From: Candidatus Bathyarchaeia archaeon
GTDB lineage: Archaea; Thermoproteota; Bathyarchaeia; Bathyarchaeales; Bathycorpusculaceae
Assembly: GCA_042296865.1 (NCBI GenBank)
Contig: CP170178.1
Span: forward strand, 2,446,162-2,510,161
Reading direction: 5' to 3'
Length of the DNA stretch: 64,000 nucleotides
Part shown: piece by piece, positions 37,128-56,675 of the stretch
Layout of the letters: the number at the start of each line of letters is the position of its first letter
How positions within the stretch are numbered: the stretch's first letter is position 1
The notes under the pieces: generated by a model
The model's database searches: none
What the model was told of the DNA's origin: nothing
Seen by the model: only the letters and a program-made list of their open reading frames with translations
Position numbers and translations under genes: made by a program

Positions 37128-38165
37128 ATGTTCACATTCAGTGGCTGCACAACAGCATTAATCACGCCAATGAAAGCAAACCAGCAAGTAGACTACGAAG
37201 GCTTAAGCCGCCTAATAGACTTCCAAATACAAGAAGGCGCAAAAGGCATACTCGCAGTAGGAACAACAGGCGAATCACCAACCCTAAACTGGGAAGAACA
37301 CTCAAAAGTAATCGAAAAAACCCGTGAATACGCTGGCAAACGTTGCATAACCATTGCTGGCACAGGCAGCAACTCCACCCAAGAAGCCATCGAAGGAACC
37401 CAACATGCCCAAGACTCAGGCGTAAACGCAGTCCTGCTTGTAGACCCATACTATAACGGGCCAAGCTCAATGGAAATCCGCCGAGAATACATTGAACCCA
37501 TCGCACGCCAGTTTCCCGAAGTTCAGATTATTCCTTACATTATACCGGGAAGAACAGGCTGCCAACTATTACCGCAAGACCTTGCTTTGCTGCATCAACA
37601 GTACCCGAACGTGAGTTGCGTAAAAGAAGCAACAGGTGACCTAAAGAATATGGAGTTAACGCGGCAGTTATGCGGAGAAAACTTTGAAATCCTCAGCGGT
37701 GACGATGACAAAACCTACACTATGATGGTGAGTCCTGACATTGGGGCAACTGGAGTTATCTCTGTAGTGTCCAACGTTGCACCTAGGGCAGTAGCTGACA
37801 TGGTTCATTACATACTTGACGGAAACGAGGAAGCCGCAGCCGTAATCCAGCAGGCACTTCAACCATTATTCAGCATTGTCACCGTGAAGACTATGGAGCA
37901 AACACCCTACGGTCCAGTAGCATGCAAAGCACGAAACCCTCTTGCATTTAAGACGTTAATGAACATCTTGGGAATGCCTTCGGGACCATGCAGGCGACCA
38001 TTAGGTAAAATGACCCGCGCTGGAATAGAAGTTGTTCTGGCAAACGTCCGCAAAGTCTACCAGGCAAACCCGCAGGTGCTACAGCCAATCGCAGATTACT
38101 TCAGCGTAGACCTAAATGACCGCCTTTACAATGAAAGGTATCTTGAGGGTTTAACGTATGCTTAA
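37128..38165 (+). CDS. dapA: 4-hydroxy-tetrahydrodipicolinate synthase
   Basis: 345 aa. ALITPM, VGTTGESPTL and the catalytic-Lys region VKEATGD. About 50-aa C-terminal extension. Confidence 0.9.
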   Translation: MFTFSGCTTALITPMKANQQVDYEGLSRLIDFQIQEGAKGILAVGTTGESPTLNWEEHSKVIEKTREYAGKRCITIAGTGSNSTQEAIEGTQHAQDSGVNAVLLVDPYYNGPSSMEIRREYIEPIARQFPEVQIIPYIIPGRTGCQLLPQDLALLHQQYPNVSCVKEATGDLKNMELTRQLCGENFEILSGDDDKTYTMMVSPDIGATGVISVVSNVAPRAVADMVHYILDGNEEAAAVIQQALQPLFSIVTVKTMEQTPYGPVACKARNPLAFKTLMNILGMPSGPCRRPLGKMTRAGIEVVLANVRKVYQANPQVLQPIADYFSVDLNDRLYNERYLEGLTYA

Positions 38166-38952
38166 GCTCTGTGTTGCAGGCGCAGCAGGTAGAATGGGCC
38201 AAGCAATCATTAGGGAAGCCAACGCTAAAGGCATCCAGACCGTGGGCGCCATAGAATCACCAAGCTGCCCCGCCTTAGGAAAAAGCCTTCGCTGTTTAGG
38301 CATTTCAGAGCAAGACACCACAATCCTAAGCTGCGACCAAATAGCCAGTGCACTTTCGGAAGCTGACGTTTTCATAAGCTTCACCGCCCCAGCAGCCGAC
38401 CTAATCAACATTCCAATAGTTGCAGCCCAAGGAAAACGCATAATTCTTGGCACCACAGGCTTCACGCCAGAACAAAAAAACACAATAATTGAGGCAATGA
38501 ACGGGAAAGTTCCTGCAGTGTTTTCGCCCAACTACAGTTTAGGCGTGAACGTGTTCTTTAAGCTTGCAGAAGCGCTCAAAGCGTTCCCCGCAGAGTACGA
38601 TTTCAGCATAAACGAAATTCACCACACTGGCAAGAAGGATGCGCCAAGTGGGACCGCCCTGAAACTTGGAGAAATCGTCTCTAACATGCGTGGTTACAAT
38701 AAAACAGTAACTGGACGAGAAGGCAACAGTCCAAGGCAACCCGGTGAATTGGAAATCACTTCGCTGCGTGCTGGAGGTGTGCCTGGAGTTCACGATTTAA
38801 TCGTTGCTGGACCTCACGAGATGCTGCGCATTGAACATACCGCGTTTTCCCGTGATGCACTTGCTCAAGGCGCCGTTTATGCGGCAAAGTGGGTAAGCAA
38901 ACAGACTACGCCTAAAGTTTACAGTATGGCTGACGTTTTAGGTTTAACTTAA
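38158..38952 (+). CDS. dapB: 4-hydroxy-tetrahydrodipicolinate reductase
   Basis: 264 aa. GAAGRMG and EIHHTGKKDAPSGTA. 8-nt overlap with dapA. Confidence 0.9.
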   Translation: MLKLCVAGAAGRMGQAIIREANAKGIQTVGAIESPSCPALGKSLRCLGISEQDTTILSCDQIASALSEADVFISFTAPAADLINIPIVAAQGKRIILGTTGFTPEQKNTIIEAMNGKVPAVFSPNYSLGVNVFFKLAEALKAFPAEYDFSINEIHHTGKKDAPSGTALKLGEIVSNMRGYNKTVTGREGNSPRQPGELEITSLRAGGVPGVHDLIVAGPHEMLRIEHTAFSRDALAQGAVYAAKWVSKQTTPKVYSMADVLGLT

Positions 38953-39027
38953 CCAGCTTTTTTCACCCGTTAACTTTTTTATCAAGAAAAAATATACACA
39001 AACAACACAAAGAGGAAGAAATAAGTC

Positions 39028-40086
39028 ATGTCGAATAAGCGTAAAGTCGCCATTTTAGGCGCAACAGGAGCCGTTGGACAACGGTACATACAGCTCTTGC
39101 AGGGTCACCCCTGGTTTGAAATTTCAGTGCTCGCCGCTTCAGAGCGGAGTGCAGGCAAAAAATACAAAGACGCATGCACCTGGCTAATGGAAACTGAGAT
39201 GCCAAAAGAAATCGCAGAAATGCCAGTAGCCAACATAGACGTTAAGTCAGCAGAGCAAACAGGCGACTTCGACTTAGTCTTCACTTCCTTGCCTGGTGAC
39301 TTGGCGGGTCCAGTGGAAAACGAGTTTGGCGCACTTTACCCAGTGTTTAGCAAAGCCAGCGCTCACCGCATGGACAAAGACGTGCCGCTTATTGTTCCAG
39401 AAATTAACCCTGACCATACAGCTTTAGTTAAGGTTCAACAGAAAAAACGTGGCTGGAAAGGTTTCATCACAACTGACCCTAACTGCAGCACCATCGGTTT
39501 AGTCATCACTTTGGCGCCTTTGTCACAGTTTGGTATACAGCAGGTTATGGTTACCACGATGCAGGCGCTCAGCGGAGCAGGATACCCAGGCGTGCCCTCA
39601 CTGGACATCATCGACAACGTTGTACCTTTCATTTCAGGCGAGGAAGACAAAATGGAAACTGAAGCCCTCAAAATCTTAGGCTCATTCGACGGTGAAAGCA
39701 TAAAGTTTGCTAATTTCAAGATGAGTGCAAGCTGCAACCGCGTCAACGTTAAAGATGGTCACCTTGAATCCGTCTTCATCAAATTGGCAGATGAACCCTC
39801 ACTTGAAGAAGTCGAGAAGGCGTTTACCAGTTTCCAAGGTGAACCTCAACGTCTCAAGCTGCCCTCTGCTCCAGAGCAGCCTATTATTGTGCGTCATGAA
39901 AAGAATCGTCCTCAACCTCGTTTCGACCGAGACGCAGGAAACGGTCAAAGCGTAGTAGTAGGAAGGTTACGAAAAGACCCAATAATGTCTGTTAAGTACA
40001 TGTGCTTAAGCCATAATACTGTTCGGGGTGCTGCGGGCGGCGGCATTTTAAGTGCTGAACTGTATGTTTCTAAAGGCTTAGCTTAA
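39028..40086 (+). CDS. asd: Aspartate-semialdehyde dehydrogenase
   Basis: 352 aa. VAILGATGAVGQ, the active-site NCSTIG, and SHNTVRGAAGG. Confidence 0.9.
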   Translation: MSNKRKVAILGATGAVGQRYIQLLQGHPWFEISVLAASERSAGKKYKDACTWLMETEMPKEIAEMPVANIDVKSAEQTGDFDLVFTSLPGDLAGPVENEFGALYPVFSKASAHRMDKDVPLIVPEINPDHTALVKVQQKKRGWKGFITTDPNCSTIGLVITLAPLSQFGIQQVMVTTMQALSGAGYPGVPSLDIIDNVVPFISGEEDKMETEALKILGSFDGESIKFANFKMSASCNRVNVKDGHLESVFIKLADEPSLEEVEKAFTSFQGEPQRLKLPSAPEQPIIVRHEKNRPQPRFDRDAGNGQSVVVGRLRKDPIMSVKYMCLSHNTVRGAAGGGILSAELYVSKGLA

Positions 40087-40128
40087 ATCTTCCTTTCTTT
40101 ACTAACTTTGAAATCTGGTGTGAAATTG

Positions 40129-41418
40129 ATGGTTAAACGTAAACTTCGTGAACCCTTAGAAGACCGCAAAGGCAACTTGTATTTTGACGGTTTCTCCGTT
40201 AAGGAATTAGCGCAAAAGTATGATACTCCACTTTACGTGATAAGCGAGAAGCGAATCCGCGAAAACTACAACCGACTACATGACGCCCTAGCAGCCAAAT
40301 ACAAGGATCTACGCATCTATTACGCTTGCAAGGCAAACACTAACCTTACCGTGCTAAAGATTTTGCAGTCCGAAGGCGCATATCTTGACACAGTCAGCCC
40401 CGGCGAGGTTTTCATGGGTTTAAGCAGCGGCTACACACCAGACCGCATACTCTTCACTGGAACAAGCGTCCGCGATGACGAACTAAAATTCCTTGCCGGC
40501 ACAGGCATCACTGTAAACATTGACAGCCAAAGCGAACTTGACCGCTTACTCAAAATCGCTGTTCCCCCAATCATTTCCGTCCGAGTTAACCCAGAAGTCG
40601 GCGCTGGACACCATGACCACTGCATCACTGCTGGTCCACAAACAAAGTTTGGACTCTGGGAAGAAGAAGCCCTAAAAGCGTACGCTACTGCAAAGAAGGC
40701 GCGAGTTGAACGCTTCGGTATCCACATGCACATTGGCTCGGGCATCTTAAAGATTGACCCTTACGTTCAAGCTGTAGAAAAGTTTTTGAGCATCGCTAAG
40801 CGGGTTCACGACGAGTTGGGCGTAGACTTTGAATTTATTGATTTAGGCGGCGGTTTGGGGGTTCCTTATCAGCCAAAGGATAAGGATCTGGACTTGTCAG
40901 AGTTTGCTATCAAAGTGGTTTCAATGTTCAAGACTAAGGTGAAAGAGTACAATTTAGGCAAACCGTTCCTGTGCATTGAACCTGGCAGGTACCTGGTTTG
41001 TGACGCAAGCATCCTGCTAACCATAGTTAACACGGTAAAGGTTACGCCTCACCGCAAATTCCTCGGCGTAGACGCAGGCTTCAACACGCTTGTGCGCCCA
41101 GCAATGTACGGTTCATACCATCCAATACTGGTAGCTGACAAGCTTGACTCAAAGGAAACAGACACTTTTGATGTTGCTGGCCCCATCTGCGAGTCAGGCG
41201 ACCTTTTAGCTAAGGACCGCGAATTGCCGCTTGTGAATGAAGGCGACGTTTTAGCGGTTCTTAACGCTGGCGCTTACGGTTACAGCATGAGTTCTCAATA
41301 CAATTCTCGTCCAAGAGCGGCTGAGGTAATGGTTCGTCAGGGAAAAACTGTATTAGTCAGGGAGCGAGAGCAACTTCAAGACTTGCTGACAAGTCAACGG
41401 ATGGCACAAAGTGAGTAA
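40129..41418 (+). CDS. lysA: Diaminopimelate decarboxylase
   Basis: YACKAN PLP-Lys motif, DLGGGLGVPY and CESGD. ATG 40129 preferred; the track ORF starts at TTG 40108. Confidence 0.9.
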   Translation: MVKRKLREPLEDRKGNLYFDGFSVKELAQKYDTPLYVISEKRIRENYNRLHDALAAKYKDLRIYYACKANTNLTVLKILQSEGAYLDTVSPGEVFMGLSSGYTPDRILFTGTSVRDDELKFLAGTGITVNIDSQSELDRLLKIAVPPIISVRVNPEVGAGHHDHCITAGPQTKFGLWEEEALKAYATAKKARVERFGIHMHIGSGILKIDPYVQAVEKFLSIAKRVHDELGVDFEFIDLGGGLGVPYQPKDKDLDLSEFAIKVVSMFKTKVKEYNLGKPFLCIEPGRYLVCDASILLTIVNTVKVTPHRKFLGVDAGFNTLVRPAMYGSYHPILVADKLDSKETDTFDVAGPICESGDLLAKDRELPLVNEGDVLAVLNAGAYGYSMSSQYNSRPRAAEVMVRQGKTVLVREREQLQDLLTSQRMAQSE

Positions 41419-41419
41419 T

Positions 41420-42253
41420 ATGCAGTTTTGGAAAATGCACGGGTTAGGAAACGACTACATAGTAATCGATAACCGAGACGACAAGATAGGTGACCAAAAA
41501 GCCGCAGAGTTAGCTAAGAAGCTTTGCACTCGCAGGTTTTCTGTGGGCGCTGACGGGCTCTTGCTTGTTTGCACCTCGAAGGTTGCTGACGTGAAAATGC
41601 GGATTTTCAACGTTGACGGTAGCGAAGCGGAAATGTGCGGTAACGGCATCCGCTGCTTTAGCAAGTACTGTTACGAAAACGGGGTTGTGAAGAAGTCTGA
41701 GTTTAAGGTTGAAACCCTCGGCGGCGTCAAGAACATTTGGCTGAACCTTCAAGGTGACGAAGTTGCATCGGTTAAAGTGGATATGGGTGCGCCAAACTGG
41801 GAACGCAAATCTTTGCCGATGGCTGGCGAAGGCACCTGCATCAACTGCAGTTTAATGGTTGACGAAGAATCCTACAACATAACAGCATTGTCAATGGGTA
41901 ACCCGCACTGCGTAATCTTTGTTGAAACCGTTGATGAAACACCCGTCGAATATGTTGGTCCAATGGTGGAAAACCATGAAGCTTTCCCCAACCGAACCAA
42001 CGTGGGCTTTGTCCAAGTTATAAGCAAGAATGAACTGAAAGTGCGTGTTTGGGAACGTGGCTGCGGTGAAACGCTTGCGTGTGGCACTGGAACCTGCGCT
42101 GCCGTGGCTGCCGCAAACAGGCTGGGCAAGGTGGGCAACAAAGTTACTGTTCACGTGCTCGGCGGCGACTTGCATGTTGAAGTTGGCAAAAGCCTGTTTC
42201 TGATTGGTCCTGCCGAGAAGGTTTACCAAGGCACACTATTTGGAGAAAACTAA
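41420..42253 (+). CDS. dapF: Diaminopimelate epimerase
   Basis: HGLGNDY, CGNGIRC and ACGTG catalytic cysteine motifs. ATG 41420 lies 1 nt after the lysA stop. Confidence 0.9.
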   Translation: MQFWKMHGLGNDYIVIDNRDDKIGDQKAAELAKKLCTRRFSVGADGLLLVCTSKVADVKMRIFNVDGSEAEMCGNGIRCFSKYCYENGVVKKSEFKVETLGGVKNIWLNLQGDEVASVKVDMGAPNWERKSLPMAGEGTCINCSLMVDEESYNITALSMGNPHCVIFVETVDETPVEYVGPMVENHEAFPNRTNVGFVQVISKNELKVRVWERGCGETLACGTGTCAAVAAANRLGKVGNKVTVHVLGGDLHVEVGKSLFLIGPAEKVYQGTLFGEN

Positions 42254-42254
42254 A

Positions 42255-43415
42255 TTGAACTTTGAATACGCTCAAAGAATCAAACGTTTACCACCCTACC
42301 TGTTTGCTGAAATAGAGAAAATGCAGAATGAAAAGAAAGCTCAAGGCGTCGATTTAATTTCGCTGAGCATTGGTGACCCTGACTTGCCACCGCCGGATTT
42401 TGTGGTGGATGCGCTTGCTAAAGAAGCTTCAAACCAGAAAAATCATAATTACTCGTTTAGTCAAGGTGAACCTGACTTCCGCGAAGCAGTTTCCCGTTGG
42501 TACAAGAACCGGTTCGGTGCGGATGTTGCACATGATCAAGTGGTGGCTTTGTTGGGTTCTAAGGAGGGTCTTGCAAACATTGCCCGCGCCTTCATCAATC
42601 CTGGTGACAAGGTGCTTGTTCCTGACCCAGCTTACCCAGTGTACGCTAACGGCAGCACGATTCTATGTGACGGAGATGCTGTGCCGATGCCTATGCTTGA
42701 AGACAACAATTTCCAGCCCGACTTAAACGCCATTGACCCACAAAACGCCAAAATGATGTTCTTAAACTACCCAAATAATCCCACCGCCGCAACCGTTGAC
42801 AAAGCTTTCCTTAAAGAAGCTGTGGACTTTGCCAAAGACAACAATATCATCTTATGTTATGACAATGCTTACTCGGAAATTACCTACGACGGTTACCGCG
42901 CCCCAAGCATCCTTGAGATTCCAGGCGCCGAAGAAGTCGCAATTGAATTTCACTCGCTTAGCAAAACGTTTAACATGACAGGTGACCGCATCGCGTTTGC
43001 CGTCGGCAATAAGCAGCTTGTGGCTGGCTTAACAAAAATCAAGTCCCAAATCGATTCTGGACCACCCGTTTACACCCAAAAAGTTGCCGTAGCAGCGCTT
43101 GGTGTTTACAAGAGCAGTGACCAACCAGAATTCCTGCGCAAAAACAATCAAATAATGCAAGAACGCCGTGACCTGCTTGTTGACACGTTGGCAAAAATTG
43201 GTTACCCCTGCAAGGCGCCTAAAGCAACCTTTTACGTGTGGGTAAACTGCAAGGGCGACTCAATGAAGTTTACGGCTAAACTGCTTGACGTCGGCGTGGC
43301 TGTAACGCCCGGCGTTGGGTTTGGCAAGTATGGTGAAGGCTACATACGCATGACGTTTACGCAGCCAAAAGAACGCATAAAAGAAGCCTGCAGCCGCATC
43401 GCAAGCGCCTTCTAA
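42255..43415 (+). CDS. dapL: LL-diaminopimelate aminotransferase (class I/II aminotransferase)
   Basis: RLPPYLFAEIEK N-terminus, the NPT motif, and SLSKTFNMTGDRIAF PLP-Lys motif. Last gene of the dap operon. Start is uncertain: TTG 42255 (2 nt after the dapF stop) or TTG 42204 (track). Confidence 0.75.
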   Translation: MNFEYAQRIKRLPPYLFAEIEKMQNEKKAQGVDLISLSIGDPDLPPPDFVVDALAKEASNQKNHNYSFSQGEPDFREAVSRWYKNRFGADVAHDQVVALLGSKEGLANIARAFINPGDKVLVPDPAYPVYANGSTILCDGDAVPMPMLEDNNFQPDLNAIDPQNAKMMFLNYPNNPTAATVDKAFLKEAVDFAKDNNIILCYDNAYSEITYDGYRAPSILEIPGAEEVAIEFHSLSKTFNMTGDRIAFAVGNKQLVAGLTKIKSQIDSGPPVYTQKVAVAALGVYKSSDQPEFLRKNNQIMQERRDLLVDTLAKIGYPCKAPKATFYVWVNCKGDSMKFTAKLLDVGVAVTPGVGFGKYGEGYIRMTFTQPKERIKEACSRIASAF

Positions 43416-43546: not shown

Positions 43547-44392
43547 TCAAACTTTTCTTTTTTTATGTTTCAAAAATGCGGTTAAAAGAACTGTGAACAG
43601 TATCAATGGAAACACAGACCAGCTGGGTATTTCTGGGATTGGGTTTGCTTCAATTATGTGCACAAGTGGTTGCGTATCAACAGCCCACCCTGTTTCGTAT
43701 GGTGTATCCCAAATTCCGGTTGCGTTGATTTCTTTAGCTTCTGGGTACTTGGCGGTGTAATTGCTGTAATAGTTGCGTTCTATAACTGGTGCTGTTGAAA
43801 GCCAAACTATAATATCGTTATTTATCAAGTTATTTTTTGTTATAACGCTGGCAGTGCCTTTGCAGTAATCAATGGAGATGGCGTTTGCGTTGTTTTCAAA
43901 AGTGTTTGAAGTGATAAGGTTGTTTTCAGAGCCAATCACAAAAATGCCCGAGTCACAACCTGTGATGTAATTATTGTCGAAAACATTATTCTTAGAATTG
44001 GTACAGGATATGCCTGCTGCAAAGTTTGTTATGCAAAAATTTGTTATAGTTACGTTGTTTATTCTTGCGCGTGATGGGTCTGCGCCGGAACCGTTCGATA
44101 AATCAAACGCTGAACCTGAACCATTTCCCTCAATAGTGTAGCCTCCTCCGTCAAGTATAATGTTGCTTCTTTGGATCTGAATGCTTCCTGAAAGGTTACC
44201 TGTCAAAGTGTACGTGTCTGCTTGTTTTAGGATTTGGTTTGTTCCTTTAACGCTTCCGTCAGGTTTGATAAAAACTGTTGAATCATTCTGTGCTGAAACA
44301 GTTTGAACGTTAATGAATACCGCTAATGCAAGTACAAGAATGGATGCAGTTGCTAATGCGTTTTTCATGAATAACTGGTAAAAAACTTTCAC
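43547..44392 (-). CDS. NosD-like parallel beta-helix surface protein with C-terminal PEI-TM-basic anchor
   Basis: 281 aa. Signal peptide, repeated N.I..N blocks, NYYSNY...GIWDTPY motif, and tail IPEIPSWSVFPLILFTVLLTAFLKHKKRKV. Confidence 0.7.
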   Translation of the reverse strand: MKVFYQLFMKNALATASILVLALAVFINVQTVSAQNDSTVFIKPDGSVKGTNQILKQADTYTLTGNLSGSIQIQRSNIILDGGGYTIEGNGSGSAFDLSNGSGADPSRARINNVTITNFCITNFAAGISCTNSKNNVFDNNYITGCDSGIFVIGSENNLITSNTFENNANAISIDYCKGTASVITKNNLINNDIIVWLSTAPVIERNYYSNYTAKYPEAKEINATGIWDTPYETGWAVDTQPLVHIIEANPIPEIPSWSVFPLILFTVLLTAFLKHKKRKV

Positions 44393-44853: not shown

Positions 44854-45318
44854 ATGGAAAAACCTCCCTACGCTGGCAAGGTAGTTAAAACACTTGCACT
44901 CATTGCTCTTATTACAGTAACAAGCATTTCGCTTGCTTGTGCAATAGACAAACAAAATTACTCTATGAGACCAGTTCCGGAAAGCCTTGTTATACGTAAC
45001 CAAGGCGTGACTGTAAGCAACGGACAATACAACATTTCCTATTCAATAAATGCGCAGGAATCTTCGACAATTGAAAAAATTCTCATAAAACAAGCCAACA
45101 TTACCGACCCAACCACAAATGTTGCAGTCAATAAAGTAACCATTTACATTAACGGCACCACCATGAAGACAACAAGCCAACTGAATTACCAGCTAAACAG
45201 CGGTAGCAGCCTTCAACTAAACATCATTATCCCCTGCACAGCAACCAGCTCAAACCAAACGTCCCTAACAATCTATGCATCTAAAGCAATGTATTACATA
45301 GATACGGTGCTTCCATAA
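44854..45318 (+). CDS. Secreted/anchored hypothetical protein
   Basis: 154 aa. N-terminal hydrophobic segment LALIALITVTSISLACA and several NxT/S sequons. Confidence 0.5.
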   Translation: MEKPPYAGKVVKTLALIALITVTSISLACAIDKQNYSMRPVPESLVIRNQGVTVSNGQYNISYSINAQESSTIEKILIKQANITDPTTNVAVNKVTIYINGTTMKTTSQLNYQLNSGSSLQLNIIIPCTATSSNQTSLTIYASKAMYYIDTVLP

Positions 45319-45579: not shown

Positions 45580-45975
45580 TTAAAAAGAATGAAGTCCAAA
45601 GGTGACAAACGAAACCAGAATTGTTGCCGCCACCAAAACGCATGCGGCAAGAGCAAACCATTTAGCGACTCCACGTTTACCCTCAAAAAACATTATTGTT
45701 GATGCTGAAACCGACAGGAAGAGCAGCAGGGTTGAGGTTTCTTTTGGATCCCATGACCAGTAGCTGCCCCATGCTGTTTGAGCCCAAAGCATGCCTGAAG
45801 CCAACCCCAGAAAAGTAAAAAGCCAAGCTGCCAAACCAAAAACGCCCGTTAACTTCTTCTTTTTAAACCCCTTAATCAGTATGGCAGCTGCAAAAAGGAA
45901 AACAAAAACGTAACCAACAATAGCTAACGTGGGATGAATGTAAAGCATTACTGAATCTAGTTCGTGGCTGCTCAT
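45580..45975 (-). CDS. Minimal CcsA/ResC-like heme-handling (WWD-domain) membrane protein, 131 aa, about 4 TM
   Basis: [13 protein letters not shown] (nt 45739-45771) is close to the CcsA tryptophan-rich motif. Flanking His residues in [11 protein letters not shown] and the C-terminal GLHSF. ATGA-type 4-nt overlap with the upstream CxxCH gene. Confidence 0.6.
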
Positions 45976-46778
45976 GCTGGTTTCTTTGCCCTCATTTTAA
46001 TAACAACAAAAACCGCTATGCCTAAAACCGCAAAAGCCACCACTGCCAAGATTGCTATGATTGTCCAGTCAAAAGCTTCTGGTTCCTCCACGTCGGGCGT
46101 TGTTGTTTGGGTTGGCAAGGTTGTCTGGGTTGATGGTGCTGTTTGGGTTGTGGATGGTGAAGGAGTTTGTTGGTTTGTGGTTGAGGGGGTGTTTGTTGGG
46201 TTTACTGTTGAGGTGGGGGCTGGTGTTGATGAAGGTTGTGAGGGAGTAGGTGTGTATGTTGGCGGTGTAGGTGTGGGGAAGGGCGGAGGCGTTCCTGTGG
46301 GTGAACCAACTGTGAGTAACTGTGCAGGAGAGTAGGCGTCGGAGAAGGCGCTATAGTGAGAGTTGTAACCTGAGGCTTGAATATCCAAGTAGTCGTAACC
46401 TTCTGAAGTTGCTGTTATTTGCCATGTTGCAGTAGCGGTTCCCGGTTTTAGGGTACCGACACTGTAAGTGGGATTGCTTACTTGGAAGTGGCCAAAGGTT
46501 GAACGAAGCGTTAAAGAAACACTGCCTATATCGGTATAAATTGGCGAATTAACCTCGTTTTGAATAACCACTTTTACGGTAACAGTTTGGTTAACGTTTA
46601 ACGTTGAAGGCAGTTGGTTGCCTCTGTCACCTTCCAGAATGTCAAGGTACTGGTGATACCCCTTTGAACTGTGGCAGCTTGTGCAGGGTTCATTTGAACG
46701 GCTAAAGGTTAACGGAGAAAAAACTAAAGCTAAAACAGTCAACGTTAAGATTAGCACTATTACTGTTAACTTTTTCAA
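45972..46778 (-). CDS. Surface-tethered protein with one CxxCH motif, beta-sandwich domain, P/T/Q linker and C-terminal PEAF-TM-basic anchor (candidate monoheme c-type cytochrome)
   Basis: 268 aa. Signal peptide, then CTSCH at nt 46671-46685. Linker [28 protein letters not shown].... Tail [38 protein letters not shown]. Confidence 0.6.
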
Positions 46779-47156: not shown

Positions 47157-47624
47157 TTAGTGGGGGATTTTTTTGGTTATGTGCAGGTCGATGGCTGCCA
47201 TAAAAATGAAGGGTAAGGCTAAATAGAATATGGCAAAGGCTGTGTTGCTAACTGCTTGTGTGCAGATGCTTGGGATTATCTGGTTTGGGTTTGTAAGGTC
47301 TAATCCGTTACTGTTTAACTGGTTGATTATGGCTGTGCTTGCTATTGTTAAGCCTAAACTGATTAGGAATTGGATAGAAACGCGTTTTTCTTTTCCAAAT
47401 ATTAACCTTGAAATGATTGTGGACAAAACAAATGTCCATGCAAAAGAGAAGATGAAAACTGCTAGACCCATGCTGCTGCTTAGCGTTGTCGCAAGTAAAG
47501 GGTTGGTTGTGCCCAGTGCGGTTATGATTGTGGATAGGGCTGTTTGGGTGAAGATTTGGTAGCTGAGCATCAGAAAGTATGCTAAAGCCAGGTAAGCTAT
47601 GGTTCTTGTTAGTTTTCTGGCCAA
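47157..47624 (-). CDS. Integral membrane protein (about 4 TM)
   Basis: 155 aa, hydrophobic throughout. No family recognised. Confidence 0.5.
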   Translation of the reverse strand: MARKLTRTIAYLALAYFLMLSYQIFTQTALSTIITALGTTNPLLATTLSSSMGLAVFIFSFAWTFVLSTIISRLIFGKEKRVSIQFLISLGLTIASTAIINQLNSNGLDLTNPNQIIPSICTQAVSNTAFAIFYLALPFIFMAAIDLHITKKIPH

Positions 47625-48142: not shown

Positions 48143-48817
48143 TTAAGCAAACAGTTTTCTTGATTTCATAATCAGCAGGACACCGATTAACAGCAACACT
48201 ACGCCCACTGGAAGCAGAATGTACGGTAAAGTTCCGTAAAGAGGTATTCTGGAACCCAACTGGATATCTGCATCTATACCGTTTGAAGCGTCAGCGTTCA
48301 TTATTACAAGCATGCCTGTTCTGCCTAGACTGCTTGGACTGCAATAAAGCGTTGCCGCACTGGATGTTATAACGGTGTCAAGAAATATTTCTGTTGACAT
48401 CGGCATAACTGGGTATTGCGCGTTTACGATTTGGACGTTTGTAATGTTCAATGAAGCCGTAAATGCTTGTGCACGATAATTCCATCCGTAAGCAGGCGCC
48501 GCATACCTGTAATTGCCTGTGTAAGCGTTGACTGTTTCCATTGCGCCCCAACCAGCGAAGACTTCTTTATCTGAATCGGTGGAAATGACCCATTTTAGAC
48601 GTGCTTCAGATACGGGTGCGCCAACCCAGATCGCAAAAGCGTTTGAATCCGTCTCGATGTGGTACGTGTTGCTTAAAGCGTAGCCTTCAAAATCGTTGCC
48701 CGTGTTTAGGTACATTATGACTCCGCCTGCGATTAGGGCAACTCCGCCGAGAAGCAGCATTAAAACGCTGACTATTATCAGCAAGATTCTCTTTTTTGAA
48801 GCATTCAAATCAGCCAT
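48143..48817 (-). CDS. Hypothetical protein with TM helices at both termini and an extracytoplasmic middle domain
   Basis: 224 aa. N-terminal ILLIIVSVLMLLLGGVALIAGGVIM and C-terminal LPYILLPVGVVLLLIGVLLIMKSRK. Confidence 0.55.
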   Translation of the reverse strand: MADLNASKKRILLIIVSVLMLLLGGVALIAGGVIMYLNTGNDFEGYALSNTYHIETDSNAFAIWVGAPVSEARLKWVISTDSDKEVFAGWGAMETVNAYTGNYRYAAPAYGWNYRAQAFTASLNITNVQIVNAQYPVMPMSTEIFLDTVITSSAATLYCSPSSLGRTGMLVIMNADASNGIDADIQLGSRIPLYGTLPYILLPVGVVLLLIGVLLIMKSRKLFA

Positions 48818-48940
48818 TCCCCATTAACCAAGCATACAAATATTCTGGATAAAAACTTTATCTAAACACAAAAAATTTCAGTCAAAAAACCTGTTAATAT
48901 GCGTAAAACATATTTTATAGCTTTTCAAATTAAGGTAGTA

Positions 48941-50236
48941 ATGCTCAAAAACAGCAAAATATTGTTTCTTACACTGATTCTGTCTCTGATAGCCGGTAGC
49001 TTAACCACCCTTTTGGTTACGCCAGCAGAAGCAGAAAACACCAAAACCATAACTGTACCTACAGATTTTTTCAGCATAAAAGCAGCCGTTGGCAACGCTT
49101 CCCAAGGCGACATTATCATTGTTAAAGGCGGAGTTTACTATGAAAACTTGGTAATCGACAAGGCGCTGACGCTGGAAGGTCAGGGAGCGGTGGTTGATGG
49201 GGGCGGAGTTGGCACGGTTGTTTTTGTAAACGCAGACAACGTTACTTTCAGCGGGTTCACCGTCCAAAACAGCGGCGGCAATTTGACTGACAGCGGCATC
49301 TATGTCAACAGTTCTGAAAGCACCATGCTTTCTGGCAACGTGGTTACAGACAATAACATTGGGGTTTACCTTGCTGATTCCCCAAGAAGCCTGCTTAGAG
49401 ATAACGCTTTAACAGGTAACAAGTTCAATTTTGGAGTTTACAGCAGCAACTTTGATGGTTACATCCAAGAAATTGACCAGTCAAACACGGTGGATGGTAA
49501 ACCCATAGTTTACTGGGTAAACACTGAAGGTAAACAAGCCCCACCCAATGCGGGATATGTTGCCGCCGTAAATTGCACTGACATAACCGTTTCAGACGTG
49601 CTACTGGAGAAGAACTGGCAGAACCTATTGTTTGCTTACGTTACCAACTCCAAAATCACTGGCGTAACAGGTACACTGGGCATGGATGGCATCTGGCTAA
49701 TAGAAACCAGCAACTGCAACCTCCAAAACAACAACATCTCTGGCAACGTTTGGGGCGGTGTGGCATTAGTTAACACTAAAGACTCTACCATTCAAGAAAA
49801 CTCTTTCAAGAATAACGGTGGTTACGGCTTGTTTTTGTCAGACTCCTCAAGCAACCAGTTCTTCCACAATAACTTCATAGATAACCCACATCAAGCTTGG
49901 CTTTACGGAGAGAACAGCAACAGTTGGGATAACGGGTACCCAAGTGGCGGCAATTACTGGAGCAACTACACGGGTGTTGACCAGTATTCAGGACGGTACC
50001 AGAATGCTACAGGAAGTGACGGTTTAGGCGACACCCCAGTTGATTTAGCAAAGGACAATGTGGATAATTACCCGTTAACCAAGCCATGGACGATGCAGCC
50101 AAACGAGCCCAACTTGATTCCCATTGAGTTCTCAGTAACTGCAATAATCGCGGTAACCACCATACTGGTCATTTTCATAGTTTACTATGTCAAAAAATGG
50201 GTAACAAAAAAACAAGTAACTAAAATGGAGACATGA
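48941..50236 (+). CDS. NosD-like parallel beta-helix surface protein with C-terminal TM anchor
   Basis: Signal peptide, many PbH1-like repeats, GGNYWSNYTG...GLGDTP...DNYPL, tail PIEFSVTAIIAVTTILVIFIVYYVKKW. ATG 48941 (AAGGTAG upstream) preferred over 48899. Confidence 0.75.
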   Translation: MLKNSKILFLTLILSLIAGSLTTLLVTPAEAENTKTITVPTDFFSIKAAVGNASQGDIIIVKGGVYYENLVIDKALTLEGQGAVVDGGGVGTVVFVNADNVTFSGFTVQNSGGNLTDSGIYVNSSESTMLSGNVVTDNNIGVYLADSPRSLLRDNALTGNKFNFGVYSSNFDGYIQEIDQSNTVDGKPIVYWVNTEGKQAPPNAGYVAAVNCTDITVSDVLLEKNWQNLLFAYVTNSKITGVTGTLGMDGIWLIETSNCNLQNNNISGNVWGGVALVNTKDSTIQENSFKNNGGYGLFLSDSSSNQFFHNNFIDNPHQAWLYGENSNSWDNGYPSGGNYWSNYTGVDQYSGRYQNATGSDGLGDTPVDLAKDNVDNYPLTKPWTMQPNEPNLIPIEFSVTAIIAVTTILVIFIVYYVKKWVTKKQVTKMET

Positions 50237-50964
50237 AAGTGGTTTTAGATAAACTCAAAAAATATTCTAACGTGATATGGTTCATTCTTGTTACAGTGGT
50301 TTTTGCACTTTTCCTTTACTGGATTACTGTTGCGGTTTACGGGTTTGGCGATTGGCTGTTCCTTGCTATCAACATTGTTTTTTTCGCAGTGTTTTTAGCG
50401 TTTATTCAGTTCCGCCGAAGAATCGCTCGGTTGCCCGCAAGCGCCACTTTAGCCTTCATAGTGGCATTGTACTTGGAAATGTACGGTTTCCCCTTAACTA
50501 TGTACGTGTTCAGTTGGACGTTTGGCTATCAGAAAGTGTACATGCTTGAGTTTTTGCTGGCTGGCGTAATCGGCGCAGACGCGTTTATGGTGTTTTTCCA
50601 CTGGTTTATTCTGCCCGTTTCAAACATTCTGATGCTTTCGGGGCTGCTGTTGATTGTGTTTGGCTGGAGAAAAATTCATCAAGCCAAAGGCCAACACTTA
50701 GTAAAAGACGGCATTTATCATTACATCCGCCACCCACAATACCTTGGTTTCCTAATGTTAACTTTAGGCATGAACATTCAGTACACGACTATTCCAACGT
50801 TGTTGATGTGGCCGCTTCTTATTATTTTGTATTATCGTTTGGCAAGGCAAGAAGAGCAGGAGGTAGCGGAAAAGTTTGGGCAAGAATATGGCCGATATAA
50901 AGAAGAAACGCCCATGTTTTTCCCCCGTTTCTTTAACTCAAAAAAGGTTGCGGTAAAAAAATAG
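50233..50964 (+). CDS. ICMT/PEMT-family membrane methyltransferase
   Basis: 243 aa, multi-TM. GIYHYIRHPQYLGFLMLTLG and the EE..L...FG.EY..Y motif. 4-nt overlap with the upstream beta-helix gene. Confidence 0.7.
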   Translation: MKVVLDKLKKYSNVIWFILVTVVFALFLYWITVAVYGFGDWLFLAINIVFFAVFLAFIQFRRRIARLPASATLAFIVALYLEMYGFPLTMYVFSWTFGYQKVYMLEFLLAGVIGADAFMVFFHWFILPVSNILMLSGLLLIVFGWRKIHQAKGQHLVKDGIYHYIRHPQYLGFLMLTLGMNIQYTTIPTLLMWPLLIILYYRLARQEEQEVAEKFGQEYGRYKEETPMFFPRFFNSKKVAVKK

Positions 50965-51711: not shown

Positions 51712-51790
51712 TGGTGCGGTCGCCGGGATTTGAACCCGGGATCATTAGCTTGGAAGGCTAAAGTCCTAAACCAGACTAGACGACAACCGC
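51712..51790 (-). tRNA. tRNA-Gly (anticodon UCC), 3' CCA encoded, no intron
   Basis: Hand-folded from GCGGTTGTCGTCTAGTCTGGTTTAGGACTTTAGCCTTCCAAGCTAATGATCCCGGGTTCAAATCCCGGCGACCGCACCA. It gives a 7-bp acceptor stem, D stem GTCT/GGAC, anticodon stem TTAGC/GCTAA with loop CTTCCAA, T arm CCGGG-TTCAAAT-CCCGG, and discriminator A. Confidence 0.9.
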
Positions 51791-52087
51791 CCAAATTTGC
51801 TCAGAGCTATCCGCTTTTTTGCTCTTTGCAATAGGCAGAAATAGCTTGAGTTTTTAATAAAGTTTTCAGAAAATAGATCATCTATTCTGCAGTGAGTGAA
51901 CTGGGGCTTACCAGTAGCAGTATTCTTATTGGATTATGAAATGCAAGGGCATAGATTGTGAGTGGTCAAAAACTGTTTAGTCAAGAAAGTTTAACTAAAC
52001 TAAACCCCTCGCTTTTAAAATTTAGTAAAAGAAGTTTGACGAAACAAGTTATAAACCTATTTTGCTGTGATACTTGTGTGGGGTTTA

Positions 52088-52990
52088 ATGGTTAAAAAAT
52101 CTGTTTCGCTGAGCTTAATCTTATCACTGGTTTTACTCTTAGGTAGCCTGATTGGAAGCAATTCTGGTTTTGTTAATGCTCAAACATATGACGTCATAAC
52201 TATAACTTCTGATGGTGATGTTGAAGGTACAAGTCTAATTGAACGCGATGGAAATGTGTACACTTTCATTGGAAACATCATGGGCACAATAAATGTTGAA
52301 AAAAGTGGCATAACTATTGATGGAGCAGGATTTTCATTAAGCGTTGGTAGTGGAATAGATTTGAGGGAAAACAAAAAGTCGGATCTCTCGCCTGCTTATG
52401 GTAATGTTACTGTTAAGAATGTGCGTTTTTGTGGTGGTTCTGGTGTATGTGCTTCTTCAAATGGCAACATTTTTATTAATAATACGTTTGAAGGGGGTGA
52501 AATATTTCTCAGATATAATGAGAACACGGGAGTTATAATCAAACATAATGTTTTTATCAATTGCGAATACGCGTTGTCTGTTGATTATGCTAGTGGGGTT
52601 AATGTGGTTGAAAATGATTTTATCAATTCTAAGATAGGGCTTCACTTGTATGGTAGGGCTTCTTTTGATAGGAACTATTGGAGTGACTATAAAACTGTCT
52701 ATCCTGATGCTAAAGAAAATGGCAACACAGGCATCTGGGATACGCCATATAACTCTTCTACAACCGCTTCAGATCTTTCTTTTGTTGATTATAACCCCTT
52801 AGTTAACCCTATAAAAACTGAAACCCAAAATATAATTAACTTAACAAAAAGTAATTCAGAGTTACCAATTACACATTTAATTGCCATAGCCGCCATACTT
52901 GCAGTAATAGCAGTTATTGCAGTTAGTTGCAGAAAAAAAATTAGCTTTAACAAAAAAGAAGTAGCTACAAACACACAAAAATTGTGTTGA
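52088..52990 (+). CDS. NosD-like parallel beta-helix surface protein with C-terminal TM anchor
   Basis: Signal peptide. DRNYWSDYKTVYPDAKENGNTGIWDTPY is nearly identical in pattern to the 43547-44392 paralogue. Tail LIAIAAILAVIAVIAVSCRKK. ATG 52088 lies within the track ORF that starts at 52067. Confidence 0.7.
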   Translation: MVKKSVSLSLILSLVLLLGSLIGSNSGFVNAQTYDVITITSDGDVEGTSLIERDGNVYTFIGNIMGTINVEKSGITIDGAGFSLSVGSGIDLRENKKSDLSPAYGNVTVKNVRFCGGSGVCASSNGNIFINNTFEGGEIFLRYNENTGVIIKHNVFINCEYALSVDYASGVNVVENDFINSKIGLHLYGRASFDRNYWSDYKTVYPDAKENGNTGIWDTPYNSSTTASDLSFVDYNPLVNPIKTETQNIINLTKSNSELPITHLIAIAAILAVIAVIAVSCRKKISFNKKEVATNTQKLC

Positions 52991-53068
52991 CCTACTTGTA
53001 GAGGCTTTAAGGTTAACCTGTGCTAAATCTTTTTAAAAACTTAATGGTTTAGTTAACTGAGGCTTAAC

Positions 53069-53380
53069 TTGCTAAAGAAACGAGACCACATTATTCTATT
53101 TGCAGTTGGCGTCTTTACCGTAGGTTTAGGTGCATGGTTAATCGGTTCTTTAATTTTTAACCTACTCACAGGTAACTCTGCCGGTAACTACGGCATTGCC
53201 GGCGCCGTCTTTATTTTTGCTGGAGCAGTCATGATTAAGGACACCTATCAAATCTTTATTCCCCTCAAGACGCAATTGCATGAAGTAAGCATTTGTCCGT
53301 ACTGTGGAGCATTGACTGCTGAGGATTCATCTTTTTGTGAAAAATGCAAGAACAAACTAGAGCAAGACAAAGAATCATAA
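53069..53380 (+). CDS. Two-TM protein with C-terminal zinc ribbon
   Basis: 103 aa. CPYCG...CEKC. TTG start. Confidence 0.45.
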   Translation: MLKKRDHIILFAVGVFTVGLGAWLIGSLIFNLLTGNSAGNYGIAGAVFIFAGAVMIKDTYQIFIPLKTQLHEVSICPYCGALTAEDSSFCEKCKNKLEQDKES

Positions 53381-53486
53381 ATGCTGCTTTGCGATAAAAA
53401 AACTGCTGATTTAATATAACCGTTAGTTAAGCCTGTTTTACTGAAATGCTTTTAAACCGCCAGAACCGAAAGCAAACTGGGTTAGC

Positions 53487-54335
53487 ATGAAGAAAAACGC
53501 CTTCACAGTTGCAGCATTCTTTTCTTTGCTGGTTTTATTGCCGCTTGTTTTGGCGGTGGGAGCTAATCCTAATCCTTCGCCTGGACCCTTAAGCATTGAT
53601 GTTAAATACTTGCCTGATTACTCTGGCAACTTTATTATCTTAACAGTTAATGTGTCGGTCTGGCAAGATATCAATCAATGCAATAGAAAAGCATGGTATA
53701 GTTTAGATGGACAAAAGAATGTTTCTATACCTTTAACTTTCAAAGGGATAATTTCTGAAGGCAACTACTATTATGAGCATTCTGAAGCAAGTGGCGAGTT
53801 AAAAATGCCCATGTGGTCGGAGAGTCCACATATTCTAAATGTTACTGTAGTTTACGATTATGGCGATTTCTTTTCAGCCGAAAGTAAAGCGTTGTATATT
53901 GGGCAGCCAGAACCAACACAAACCCCTCTAATAGTCACCATACTTTCGCCAAAAGACCAAGCCACCTACAGCATTGAAGTCCCATTAACTTACAGCGTCA
54001 ACACAAACGTTTGGTATTCCTACTATACGTTGGATAATTCTGACTCCACGACGTCTGACTGGCAACGTTTTGAAGGCAACATAACATTAAATGGGCTCGC
54101 GGAAGGTTCACACAAATTAGAGCTTTTTTTTAGGACAGAAGACACCGACCTGGGGTTTGCTGAAAGAACAGTATACTTCAAGGTTGACTCAAGCATTGTT
54201 CAGGCTACCCCGACGCCGACTACTCCAGAGTTTACCGTTTTAGGTGTTGTTGTATTGATGTTGACGGTTTTTGGGGTTATGCTTATAGTAAAAAAGAGTC
54301 AAACAAGCAACCGCTATAGTTGCTGTATTTTTTGA
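53487..54335 (+). CDS. Secreted Ig-like-repeat protein with PEF-CTERM-like signal and CaaX-like C-terminus (CCIF)
   Basis: 282 aa. Signal peptide, YSLDGQKNVSIPL and LNGLAEGSHKLELF modules, then PTPTTPEFTVLGVVVLMLTVFGVMLIVKKSQTSNRYSCCIF. Confidence 0.65.
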   Translation: MKKNAFTVAAFFSLLVLLPLVLAVGANPNPSPGPLSIDVKYLPDYSGNFIILTVNVSVWQDINQCNRKAWYSLDGQKNVSIPLTFKGIISEGNYYYEHSEASGELKMPMWSESPHILNVTVVYDYGDFFSAESKALYIGQPEPTQTPLIVTILSPKDQATYSIEVPLTYSVNTNVWYSYYTLDNSDSTTSDWQRFEGNITLNGLAEGSHKLELFFRTEDTDLGFAERTVYFKVDSSIVQATPTPTTPEFTVLGVVVLMLTVFGVMLIVKKSQTSNRYSCCIF

Positions 54336-54732
54336 ATTGCTGTTTTTTAATAAATTAGTTAATGTTGTATGGATAAGCCAATATAGCGTTACCATCAGCA
54401 TTACATGTTTGTGGTTGCATGGTGAGACAACAAGTTTTCATATATAACTAGCAACTTTAGTATGTATCAACAAGTGCTTGAGTGTCCAAGTTTTGCTTAT
54501 TTACTGTAAATGTGGAAACAAGCTAAGCAAACCAATTAAAAAGCTGGAGAATTCAGTCTTCGTTATTGAAGTATATAAATGCAAAAAATGTAAAGCCACA
54601 ATCAAACAGGCACACTACCTCGCCAACGCCCTGCCGTGCTAGAAGTCAAAAACTAAACAGCATAAAAGACAAATATTCTCTAGCTAATCGAAAAACAGAA
54701 AGGTTCATAACTCTTCTGTCTTCCAAAAAATA

Positions 54733-55584
54733 ATGTGTAAAATGAAGAAAAGCTTAGCCGCTCTGTTTATTCTTGTTTTTTGTTTACCGTTTTTGCAGTT
54801 GAATGCATCTACAGCTAATCCCTATATTGAGACTCCAGCAATCACTATAACGCAACCTTCCCCAAGCTTTCTCACATGCTATCCGAATACTTCTATCCCC
54901 ATAGAAATCGGAGTAAGAGTACTAGAAACTGAAACACCCAACAATTACATTCCACAAATTGAAAACATCTCCTACGGTATTGACGATAACCAAAATGTTA
55001 CTCTCACAAACCTAACTGAAGGAGCAAAATTCTATGCTGATCTTAACACTATAGGTGTAACTTTGATGGTGAGTTCAACAATTGACAGTTTACCCGAGGG
55101 AAACCATGTTCTTAAAGCATACTCGTTAGATTCAAACGGTGAAATGCTAACAACACAGACAACCTTTACTGTAGACTCAACTTATGCCTCACCAAAACTA
55201 AACATTATTTCTCCCCAAAACAAAACTTACTCAAACAACGATATACCCTTAATTTTTTCTATTAACAAGGAATACCAAGACGCAAAATATCTTATTGACG
55301 ATGATTTTAGCTCTGGCAACTATACTCTAATTACTGGTAACACAACTCTGGTTAACCTCACTGACGGTTCTCATACGATTTGTGTTTCAGCAGTAGCCAA
55401 GGACAAATACCATCTTGGAACTCCAGTAGGTCAATTTATCACTTTCAACATCGACGGTGCAGGAACCGTACCTGAAAGCACTCAAAAATTAGAAACAGGC
55501 ATTATCGTGGTCGGTATTTTTGTTCCGTTACTTCTGGGTTCAATTTACCTTTTTTATTACAGGAGAAAGAAAAACTGCAAGTAA
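54733..55584 (+). CDS. Secreted Ig-like-repeat protein, paralogue, C-terminal TM-basic anchor
   Basis: 283 aa. YGIDDNQNVTLTNLTEG, LPEGNHVLKAYS and LVNLTDGSHTICVSA. Tail VPESTQKLETGIIVVGIFVPLLLGSIYLFYYRRKKNCK. Alternative ATG at 54742. Confidence 0.6.
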   Translation: MCKMKKSLAALFILVFCLPFLQLNASTANPYIETPAITITQPSPSFLTCYPNTSIPIEIGVRVLETETPNNYIPQIENISYGIDDNQNVTLTNLTEGAKFYADLNTIGVTLMVSSTIDSLPEGNHVLKAYSLDSNGEMLTTQTTFTVDSTYASPKLNIISPQNKTYSNNDIPLIFSINKEYQDAKYLIDDDFSSGNYTLITGNTTLVNLTDGSHTICVSAVAKDKYHLGTPVGQFITFNIDGAGTVPESTQKLETGIIVVGIFVPLLLGSIYLFYYRRKKNCK

Positions 55585-55659
55585 GCCAAGTTTTCCTGTG
55601 CTAAATGAAAAATAGAAAGGCTCAATAACCATTTTTCTTCTAAAAAGTTATTGGTTAAA

Positions 55660-56211: not shown

Positions 56212-56402
56212 GCTACTATTTCTGATTGTTTTTTAGGAACAGCAAGAACCAAAGCTGTATGAATAGCGATTAAGTTCCTATTACTTAGACTTTATCTTGG
56301 ATAGAAATTAAAATTCGGTGAAAGTTTACTGTTTTTGAAGGGGAAGGGTATATCTTACACAAAAAACCTATGCTTAAAAACACTTAAGTCAGAGTGAAAG
56401 TT

Positions 56403-56675
56403 ATGTGTCCAGAAATGCACAAAGTCCCCGGTAACCGCATTAAAGTTTTAACTAAAGACGCAAAGCAGATGGTTAACGGTCCATACTATTGTCCAAAATG
56501 CCGAAAAGAACTACTGCAAATCCTTGGAAACGTAGACAAAAAAGAAATTTACGCAGTCTGCAAATGCGGCGTAAATCAACAGTTAACTTACGCTCCAGTT
56601 TTCCAGCCAATCGACTACTATAACAAGTTCCGAGACATCTGGAAAAAACAAACCTACGGCATAATCAAACGATAA
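56403..56675 (+). CDS. Small zinc-ribbon-like hypothetical protein
   Basis: CPKCRKE...CKCG. ATG 56403 lies within the track ORF that starts at GTG 56394. Confidence 0.4.
   Translation: MCPEMHKVPGNRIKVLTKDAKQMVNGPYYCPKCRKELLQILGNVDKKEIYAVCKCGVNQQLTYAPVFQPIDYYNKFRDIWKKQTYGIIKR

Follow-up and report, generated by a model that had tools for sequence, protein, structure and literature searches.

Two genes that overlap on the reverse strand of contig CP170178.1 (assembly GCA_042296865.1, Candidatus Bathyarchaeia archaeon) are the subject of this analysis, together with the 64,000-nucleotide (nt) stretch around them, positions 2,446,162 to 2,510,161 of the contig, which is called the window throughout. 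The upstream gene encodes a predicted exported protein of 268 amino acids (aa) with a CxxCH motif, referred to here as the partner, and the downstream gene encodes a membrane protein of 131 aa with a WWD motif, referred to as the small protein or mini-CcsA. A first-pass annotation, made from the sequence alone, had proposed that this pair is a stripped-down, substrate-dedicated cytochrome c maturation module in an archaeon. The host is indeed archaeal, and the window matches the Bathyarchaeia metagenome-assembled genome (MAG) GCA_030153525.1.

The features of the two genes are collected in Table 1, in which confidence in the structural model is given as the predicted local distance difference test (pLDDT). 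The elements described in the first-pass annotation were recovered: the partner open reading frame (ORF) with its single CTSCH motif, a β-sandwich-like domain that was modeled with high confidence by AlphaFold2, a Pro/Thr/Gln-rich linker of low model confidence, a PEAF-transmembrane (TM)-basic anchor, the 4-nt overlap with the next gene, and a second ORF with four predicted TM helices. A signal peptide had also been claimed, and the MKK and hydrophobic segment in the sequence, with a helix in the model, are consistent with one.

Table 1. Positions in the window of the features of the small gene and the partner gene
Feature	Position	Strand	Basis or comment
Small gene, encoding the minimal WWD heme-handling protein (mini-CcsA; 131 aa, four TM helices)	45580..45975	(-)	PF01578 match; ATG start
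His14 (YIHPTL), P-His1 equivalent, external end of TM1	45934..45936	(-)	Invariant in 27 aligned members
WWD loop, 17 residues, aa 64-80, outer face between TM2 and TM3	45736..45786	(-)	Almost entirely invariant
His129 in GLHSF, P-His2 equivalent, external C-terminus	45589..45591	(-)	Invariant; aligns with CcsBA C-termini
ATGA overlap of partner stop (TGA) and small-gene start (ATG), translational coupling	45972..45975	(-)	Sequence
Partner gene, exported CxxCH surface protein, candidate substrate	45972..46778	(-)	ORF, 268 aa, TTG start
Putative signal peptide or signal anchor, aa 1-26 (MKK, hydrophobic run, SPLTFS)	46701..46778	(-)	Sequence; model helix aa 2-19
CTSCH heme-c attachment-type motif, aa 32-36	46671..46685	(-)	Sequence and homolog conservation
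Immunoglobulin (Ig)/macroglobulin-like β-sandwich, aa 40-170	46269..46661	(-)	AlphaFold2 pLDDT 90-98
Pro/Thr/Gln-rich linker, aa 171-229	46092..46268	(-)	Sequence; pLDDT <50
C-terminal anchor: PEAF aa 233-236, TM helix aa 238-260, basic tail KMRAKKPA	45975..46082	(-)	Sequence; model helix aa 238-264

The 131-residue protein and the WWD heme-handling family

The small protein had been likened to CcsA on the basis of its motifs, and a profile scan gave a significant match to Pfam family PF01578 (Cytochrom_C_asm; E = 5.2e-18, 65.9 bits, gathering cut-off 29.9), spanning profile positions 64-203 of 212. When a profile built from 27 members of the small-protein family was used to search the PDB, the matches were CcmC of E. 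coli (7f02), CcmF of T. thermophilus (6zmq), and a pair of CcsBA structures, one of them 7s9y. In these alignments, His14 fell on the histidine of IIYLHVP in E. coli CcmC, the loop of residues 64-80 fell on the WWD loops of CcmC, CcmF, and CcsBA, and the terminal GLHSF fell on the terminal GMHSY or GLHSY of the CcsBA structures (GMHSY in H. hepaticus CcsBA). The external WWD loop, the two flanking histidines, and the GLHSY-type C-terminus that the first-pass annotation had described were therefore all found at corresponding positions in proteins of known structure.

Among the 27 aligned members, His14, the WWD residues, Glu98, Cys112, and His129 were invariant. The only histidines of the small protein are His4, His14, and His129, with none in residues 15-128. 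Its loops KGFKKKKL and EGKRGVAK are basic; by the positive-inside distribution of charges, both termini and the Trp-rich loop are predicted to lie on the outside. The core domain of a natural fusion homolog (see below) was modeled as four helices at a pLDDT of about 86-95. A four-helix core with a WWD loop and two external histidines (P-His1 and P-His2) is the shared heart of the bacterial heme-trafficking synthases (PMC10663686), and, judged by its sequence, the small protein is the bare conserved core of this WWD family, with nothing added.

A search of 5.8 billion proteins returned 312 homologs of the small protein. Nearly all of the best 120 were 122-135 aa long, with identities of 53-85%, and every available source name was Candidatus Bathyarchaeia. 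The homologs came from many samples, and some were located on contigs 0.2-3 Mb in length. When a library clustered at 50% identity was searched, scores above 100 bits were obtained for about 40 clusters, and canonical CcsA came next at 60-77 bits. The closest full-length relatives were of the System II CcsA type, and residues 53-131 were 44-46% identical to CcsA of Burkholderiales. A profile search of genome contigs with the small-protein alignment yielded only three Bathyarchaeia loci, since bacterial CcsA proteins, which have the same WWD peptide patterns, dominated the output.

The partial coverage of the PF01578 profile, and a length about half that of CcsA or CcmC, might suggest that the 131-aa ORF is a truncated or pseudogenized ccsA, or an artifact of assembly or gene calling. 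This explanation is effectively refuted. The conserved length of the homologs indicates that the ORF is no remnant of a longer, disrupted ccsA gene, and a fragment or pseudogene is ruled out by the number of homologs and clusters, their recovery from many samples and on contigs of up to 1-3 Mb, and the conservation of the start, the stop, and the catalytic residues.

The CxxCH partner and its linkage to the small gene

For the partner, 58 homologs were detectable, none of them assigned to a Pfam family. They begin with [M/L]KK, and the position of the CxxCH is constant among them. In the window protein the motif lies in the context SNEPCTSCH, and Cys32 and Cys35 are the sole cysteines of the 268 residues, in which a CxxCH would be expected by chance about 0.001 times (0.069 per 18,767 aa, from the composition of the window's large ORFs). 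In an alignment of 50 sequences, Cys32 was invariant and Cys35 was at least 90% conserved. The conserved residues of the β-sandwich in the same alignment (Tyr41, His97, Trp119, His141, Asp147, and Tyr149) suggest a ligand pocket and a distal ligand. The AlphaFold2 model had a mean pLDDT of 79, and Foldseek matched the β-sandwich to the macroglobulin (MG) domains of complement C3 at an E of about 1e-5, which is a generic Ig/macroglobulin-like fold match. Foldseek searches with both models were dominated by generic β-sandwiches and returned nothing informative on the membrane core or on heme proteins.

The C-termini of some partner homologs read PEFP, PELP, or PETP, followed by a TM helix and then basic residues. 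The PEF/PGF-CTERM models gave no NCBIfam match at E <= 1 for the window partner, although short models are often filtered out. Partner homologs range from 223 to more than 800 aa, and the stalk length of the surface protein is therefore highly variable. In another Bathyarchaeia genome (L084, 5871-7964), the partner has 697 aa and consists of an N-terminal CGSCH-Ig module, four Flg_new_2-type repeats, an extra Ig domain, and an anchor.

The CxxCH motif proved to be conserved in a census of 78 distinct N-terminal segments of partner homologs: 66 carried the canonical CxxCH, three had CX4CH (a known heme-c variant), four had CxxCxH, three had CxCxxH, and two had a single Cys plus His, so that all 78 retain a Cys with a nearby His. 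Partners with CxxCxH or CxCxxH form one clade, including L088 (6001-7508), L089 (6001-7458), and L092 (1670-3225), in which YLN[VI]VV replaces YLDILE. The cores of this clade are unique in carrying WAQIGWG...PKEDA and G[S/M]HS: their WWD loop has GW in place of AW and KED in place of KET, and beside P-His2, GLHS is changed to G[S/M]HS. Because these partners form a single clade, the co-occurring changes of motif and core may reflect one evolutionary event. At L089, both genes appear frameshifted, and the reading frame of the core downstream of the CxCxxH partner breaks before P-His2.

The linkage of the two genes was evaluated from both sides. At the ten loci fetched via the small protein (the window, L004-L006, and L084-L089), the partner gene was directly upstream on the same strand in every case, often with the ATGA overlap, and the identical four-base stop/start overlap was present in L002, L085, L086, and L088. 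In about 45 neighborhoods, no conserved neighbor except the partner was found beside the small gene. A partner-based survey of 60 metagenome loci plus the earlier loci gave 49 that were informative, and the small gene was adjacent at 29 of these, fused at 6, and absent within 600 nt at 14, several of which are duplicates. Therefore, although the pairing with a CxxCH protein is conserved as the first-pass annotation had supposed, its term "substrate-dedicated" has to be softened: with about 14 of 49 partner loci lacking an adjacent small gene, one synthase may serve several paralogous substrates. Alternatively, genomes with unlinked partners may carry the core at another place.

Partners with an intact CxxCH and no core gene within 600 nt downstream were seen at L131 (1-1483), L091, L096, L103, L105, L126, L133, and L139, and L131 carries two tandem partner paralogs. 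The existence of such unlinked paralogs indicates that the partner fits the role of a substrate better than that of an obligate subunit. A role as a CcsB analog was ruled out, as the N-terminal helix of the partner lacks His and unlinked paralogs exist.

The partner and the core have also been fused independently (P0162, P0170, P0174, P0196-P0199, and P0201). These fusions omit the C-terminal anchor of the partner, and the extracellular linker runs directly into "...MLYIHPPLAI...", a junction that places the N-terminus and P-His1 of the core outside. The natural fusions show that the partner and the core are functionally coupled.

Three larger proteins found outside the window (P0214, 824 aa; P0215, 728 aa; P0207, 423 aa) are triple fusions, which combine a CxxCH-Ig module, CarboxypepD_reg/PEGA repeats, and a 4-TM WWD core with a C-terminal membrane domain of about 175 aa. 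In their core, P-His2 is lost and WEP replaces WDP. The C-terminal domain has two conserved H-x13-H pairs, and in all three proteins it gave weak, sub-threshold matches to cytochrome b561 (best E = 8.5e-5); DUF4405 was also sub-threshold. No PDB match was found for this His-rich domain, and a tblastn search with it against the window returned nothing. Because the H-x13-H pattern has the spacing that is classic for di-heme cytochromes b, the setting of the module is a redox one. The domain may itself be a b-type module with two hemes, and, by analogy with CcmF, it could act as a built-in heme reductase or else form part of an electron conduit.

A candidate heme-c attachment module and competing explanations

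With a confidence somewhat above even, we favor the interpretation that the small gene encodes a minimal, dedicated cytochrome c synthase and the partner gene its substrate, the two together forming a self-contained module for heme-c attachment. The proposal of a stripped-down maturation module in an archaeon is supported by the PF01578 match, the conserved size, the conserved CxxCH, and the conserved pairing. In the envisaged mechanism, the partner would be exported via Sec and tethered by its C-terminal helix, with the CxxCH held near the outer membrane face, only 5-10 residues past the N-terminal hydrophobic segment. The core of the small protein runs in the order P-His1, two helices, WWD loop, two helices, P-His2, with the histidines and the loop predicted to face outward. 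It would hold heme b between the WWD loop and His14/His129 and present the two vinyl groups of the heme to Cys32 and Cys35 of the emerging partner. Thioether bonds would then form, His36 would become the proximal iron ligand, and the holo-partner, now a monoheme c-type cytochrome carried by a Pro/Thr stalk, would be released, with the conserved His97 or His141 of the β-sandwich as the likely distal ligand. A thiol-reducing partner would be absent from the module and is plausibly unnecessary in an anaerobe. The holo-partner would probably function in redox or electron exchange at the cell surface. We infer heme binding, covalent attachment, and a heme route to the outer face that uses neither TM-histidines nor CcsB.

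Among known systems, System II CcsA is the best-scoring subfamily for the small protein. The WWD loop, P-His1, and a GLHS[FY] C-terminus with P-His2 are shared with System II CcsA/ResC and with CcsBA (H. hepaticus, PDB 7S9Y), and the predicted role is alike, namely the presentation of heme to a CxxCH at the outer face. In contrast to the 131 aa and four TM helices of the small protein, System II CcsA has 6-8 TM helices and a length of about 250-350 aa, which exceeds 900 aa in the fused form; it works with CcsB/ResB, which is usually adjacent or fused, whereas none is found beside the small protein in the window or the neighborhoods; and it lacks the genetic tie to a single substrate.

CcmC (E. 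coli, CcmABCD, PDB 7F02) has the same four-helix, WWD, two-P-His layout from about residue 56 (HMMER alignment 56-162), and it likewise has no TM-histidines (PMC10663686) and has one dedicated partner anchored alongside. It differs in having six TM helices, in needing CcmD and CcmAB for release, and in its heme acceptor, which is a histidine of the chaperone CcmE and not a CxxCH; no ccm genes for CcmABDE partners were found in the window or the neighborhoods.

Dedicated heme lyases include Wolinella succinogenes CcsA1, which acts on the CX15CH of MccA, NrfI, which acts on CXXCK, and E. coli NrfEFG. They share with the pair the concept of a synthase isoenzyme encoded beside, and dedicated to, one substrate, and, as a further parallel, partner motif variants (CX4CH, CxxCxH, and CxCxxH) occur together with altered residues in the WWD loop and beside P-His2. 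However, those lyases are full-size CcsBA or CcmF proteins that work beside a general system, whereas the synthase proposed here is a bare core in a lineage from which no general system is known. A parallel for the partner is cytochrome f, an exported protein with a CxxCH near the mature N-terminus, a β-sandwich body, and a single C-terminal anchor, which is matured by a CcsA-type enzyme. The partner resembles it in the placement of the CxxCH, the β-sandwich, and the single anchor, but no similarity between the two was detected by sequence or by Foldseek, and the partner, a member of an undescribed family, carries a long Pro/Thr stalk.

Several results weigh against the interpretation of a synthase and its substrate. 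The NCBIfam matches of the small protein were far below their cut-offs, both for TIGR03144 (System II CcsA), which was the top match (50.4 bits, cut-off 187.6), and for TIGR01191 (CcmC; 40.3 bits, cut-off 186). Heme movement across the membrane in System II needs TM-His1 and CcsB/ResB (PMC10663686). In the small-protein family, the position of TM-His1 (the His of ILHLRF in 7s9y) is occupied by Ile or Val, unlike in System II CcsA, and with no CcsB/ResB seen either, both the TM-heme site and the heme channel of current understanding are missing. The heme supply is uncertain, as three methanogen-type Bathyarchaeota MAGs surveyed in one study lack HemBCD (PMC8351635). For the partner, no Pfam or NCBIfam family was assigned in profile scans, and a search of the PDB with its profile returned no informative family, only a weak Fn3-like match to the accessory Ig domain of longer homologs and low-complexity matches to the linker. 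A known cytochrome c fold was not found by Foldseek, which returned the generic sandwich described above. Finally, 12 of the 78 partner variants are non-canonical, including CxxCxH, CxCxxH, and single-Cys forms, and the CxxCxH partner at L088 still has an intact core gene downstream.

Alternatively, the small protein could be one subunit of a larger maturation system that acts on several cytochromes besides its neighbor, its heme being supplied by a product of distant genes, such as a CcsB-like protein, an ABC exporter, or a heme reductase. This is an unlikely explanation that still deserves weight. It is consistent with a small protein that has no TM-histidine and no visible route of heme export (PMC10663686), with the roughly 14 of 49 partner loci and the tandem paralogs of L131 that have no adjacent core gene, and with the cytochrome-b-like membrane domain added in relatives, which suggests that the core benefits from extra redox functions. 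On the other hand, no Ccm, Ccs, ResB, CcdA, or ABC heme-exporter genes were found within 6-10 kb of the pair in the approximately 45 neighborhoods, in which only the partner is conserved. In addition, a cultivated Bathyarchaeia genome has been reported to be without c-type cytochromes (PMC10477458), and three Bathyarchaeota MAGs have been reported to be without CcmCF homologs or heme-c motif proteins (PMC8351635). The resemblance of the core to CcmC, with both lacking TM-histidines, instead raises the idea that the pair captures or stores external heme and passes it to the CxxCH protein, which would serve as chaperone or receptor much as CcmE does when loaded by CcmC, for heme acquisition, detoxification, or sensing. 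A heme site reachable from the outside, a partner without a cytochrome fold, and the variable motif spacing would fit this idea, as would the lack of tetrapyrrole synthesis genes in some Bathyarchaeota MAGs (PMC8351635), although other Bathyarchaeota encode tetrapyrrole pathways (PMC7110647). We consider it quite unlikely: the Cys-x2-Cys-His found in 85% of members is a two-thioether signature and not what marks a transient carrier, a single His being used by CcmE; the pair has no linked uptake transporter; and electron transfer is suggested by the cytochrome-b-like domain fused to the module in relatives.

A further explanation dispenses with heme c altogether, such that the PF01578 protein would have a regulatory or other role like that of HemX or YpjD, and the CxxCH of the partner would be a metal-binding or thiol-redox site in an otherwise ordinary surface protein. 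PF01578 members do occur in organisms without c-type cytochromes, as exemplified by S. aureus HemX, which regulates glutamyl-tRNA reductase (PMC5801465), and the Bathyarchaeia are themselves described as being without cytochromes (PMC10477458), so that the small protein resembles HemX of S. aureus and B. subtilis in being a PF01578 member of such a lineage (PMC10477458, PMC5801465); the CxxCxH or CxCxxH of some partners is compatible with a site of another kind. However, HemX is larger, is encoded with hemA, and acts on the abundance of glutamyl-tRNA reductase, whereas the small gene is coupled, and repeatedly fused, to an extracytoplasmic CxxCH protein and not to hemA, and Pfam scans found no hem genes beside it in the 64-kb window. 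The full heme-site signature (WWD and both P-His) is invariant, and the closest full-length relatives are of the System II CcsA type. Taken together, these results make a role without heme c very unlikely.

Within the interpretation of a synthase and its substrate, a stronger and more tentative version is that the four-helix WWD/P-His core alone is a complete cytochrome c synthase. It would represent a third, minimal route without CcsB, a TM-heme channel, or CcmE, giving the Bathyarchaeia, which are regarded as fermenters or acetogens free of cytochromes, a stalked surface protein with covalent heme for extracellular redox exchange; we hold this to be possible but doubtful. In the literature on minimal or archaeal CcsA and on archaeal PF01578, no account was found of a four-helix core-only member, of the CxxCH partner family, or of a fusion of the two. 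If the interpretation is correct, a natural core-only protein with its own substrate would be a minimal system for testing whether heme can be positioned, attached, and perhaps also transported by the core alone, and the triple fusions of sister lineages, with their Ig repeats and putative di-heme cytochrome b domain, would form a single polypeptide from the membrane interior to an external heme c. Few sediment archaea are as abundant as the Bathyarchaeia, which have been described as having no c-type cytochromes. If they do have a conserved monoheme protein at the surface, it has to be asked again whether they exchange electrons with minerals, humics, or partner organisms.

Gene calling and genomic surroundings

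The partner is frequently missed by gene callers because antisense ORFs in its linker are called instead. In the GenBank annotation of the window, a 105-aa antisense ORF is called at 46018-46335 (+) within the Pro/Thr linker and the partner gene is omitted, and in the ENA contigs L086 (7299-7928) and L087 (7303-7785) an antisense ORF was likewise called in the linker. A systematic miscall of this kind would conceal a candidate cytochrome from CxxCH surveys of Bathyarchaeia. The small protein has already been named "CcsA" by automated pipelines.

Pfam scans of some 50 ORFs of the 64-kb window otherwise showed genes for amino-acid biosynthesis (a lysine diaminopimelate operon at 37128-43415, arginine genes, and a homoserine/threonine cluster) and housekeeping genes. 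No ccm, ccs, resB, ccdA, or heme-synthesis genes were found in these scans, in agreement with the statement in the first-pass annotation that CcsB/ResB, Ccm, and CcdA/ResA are not visible in the window. Two other CxxCH strings are present in it, one in a DUF255 thioredoxin-like protein (CHWCH) and one in a pyridoxal phosphate-dependent enzyme (PF00291 PALP) beside homoserine dehydrogenase, which is most likely threonine synthase. Both were rejected as candidate cytochromes on the grounds of family membership, as DUF255 and PALP proteins are normally cytoplasmic. The DUF255 protein, at 3095-5143 (+), has 682 aa, with the CHWCH as its active site and a fused glycosyl-hydrolase-like α/α-toroid region.

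The pair sits amid genes for predicted surface or membrane proteins, at 43547-44392 (-), 44854-45318 (+), 47157-47624 (-), 48143-48817 (-), 48899-50236 (+), and 50233-50964 (+). Those at 43547-44392 and 48899-50236 are NosD/β-helix proteins, both with membrane anchors, and the cluster also includes a methyltransferase of the ICMT/PEMT type, a small secreted protein with an Ig-like fold, and two membrane proteins that could not be assigned to a family. A close relative (L085) has part of the same arrangement. Farther along, the stretch at 51800-57000 has a GC content of 0.35-0.39, compared to 0.44 for the window, and contains six ORFs of 178-307 aa without a Pfam or PHROG match. It adjoins a tRNA-Gly(TCC) gene at 51712-51790 (-) and may be an integrated element or genomic island.

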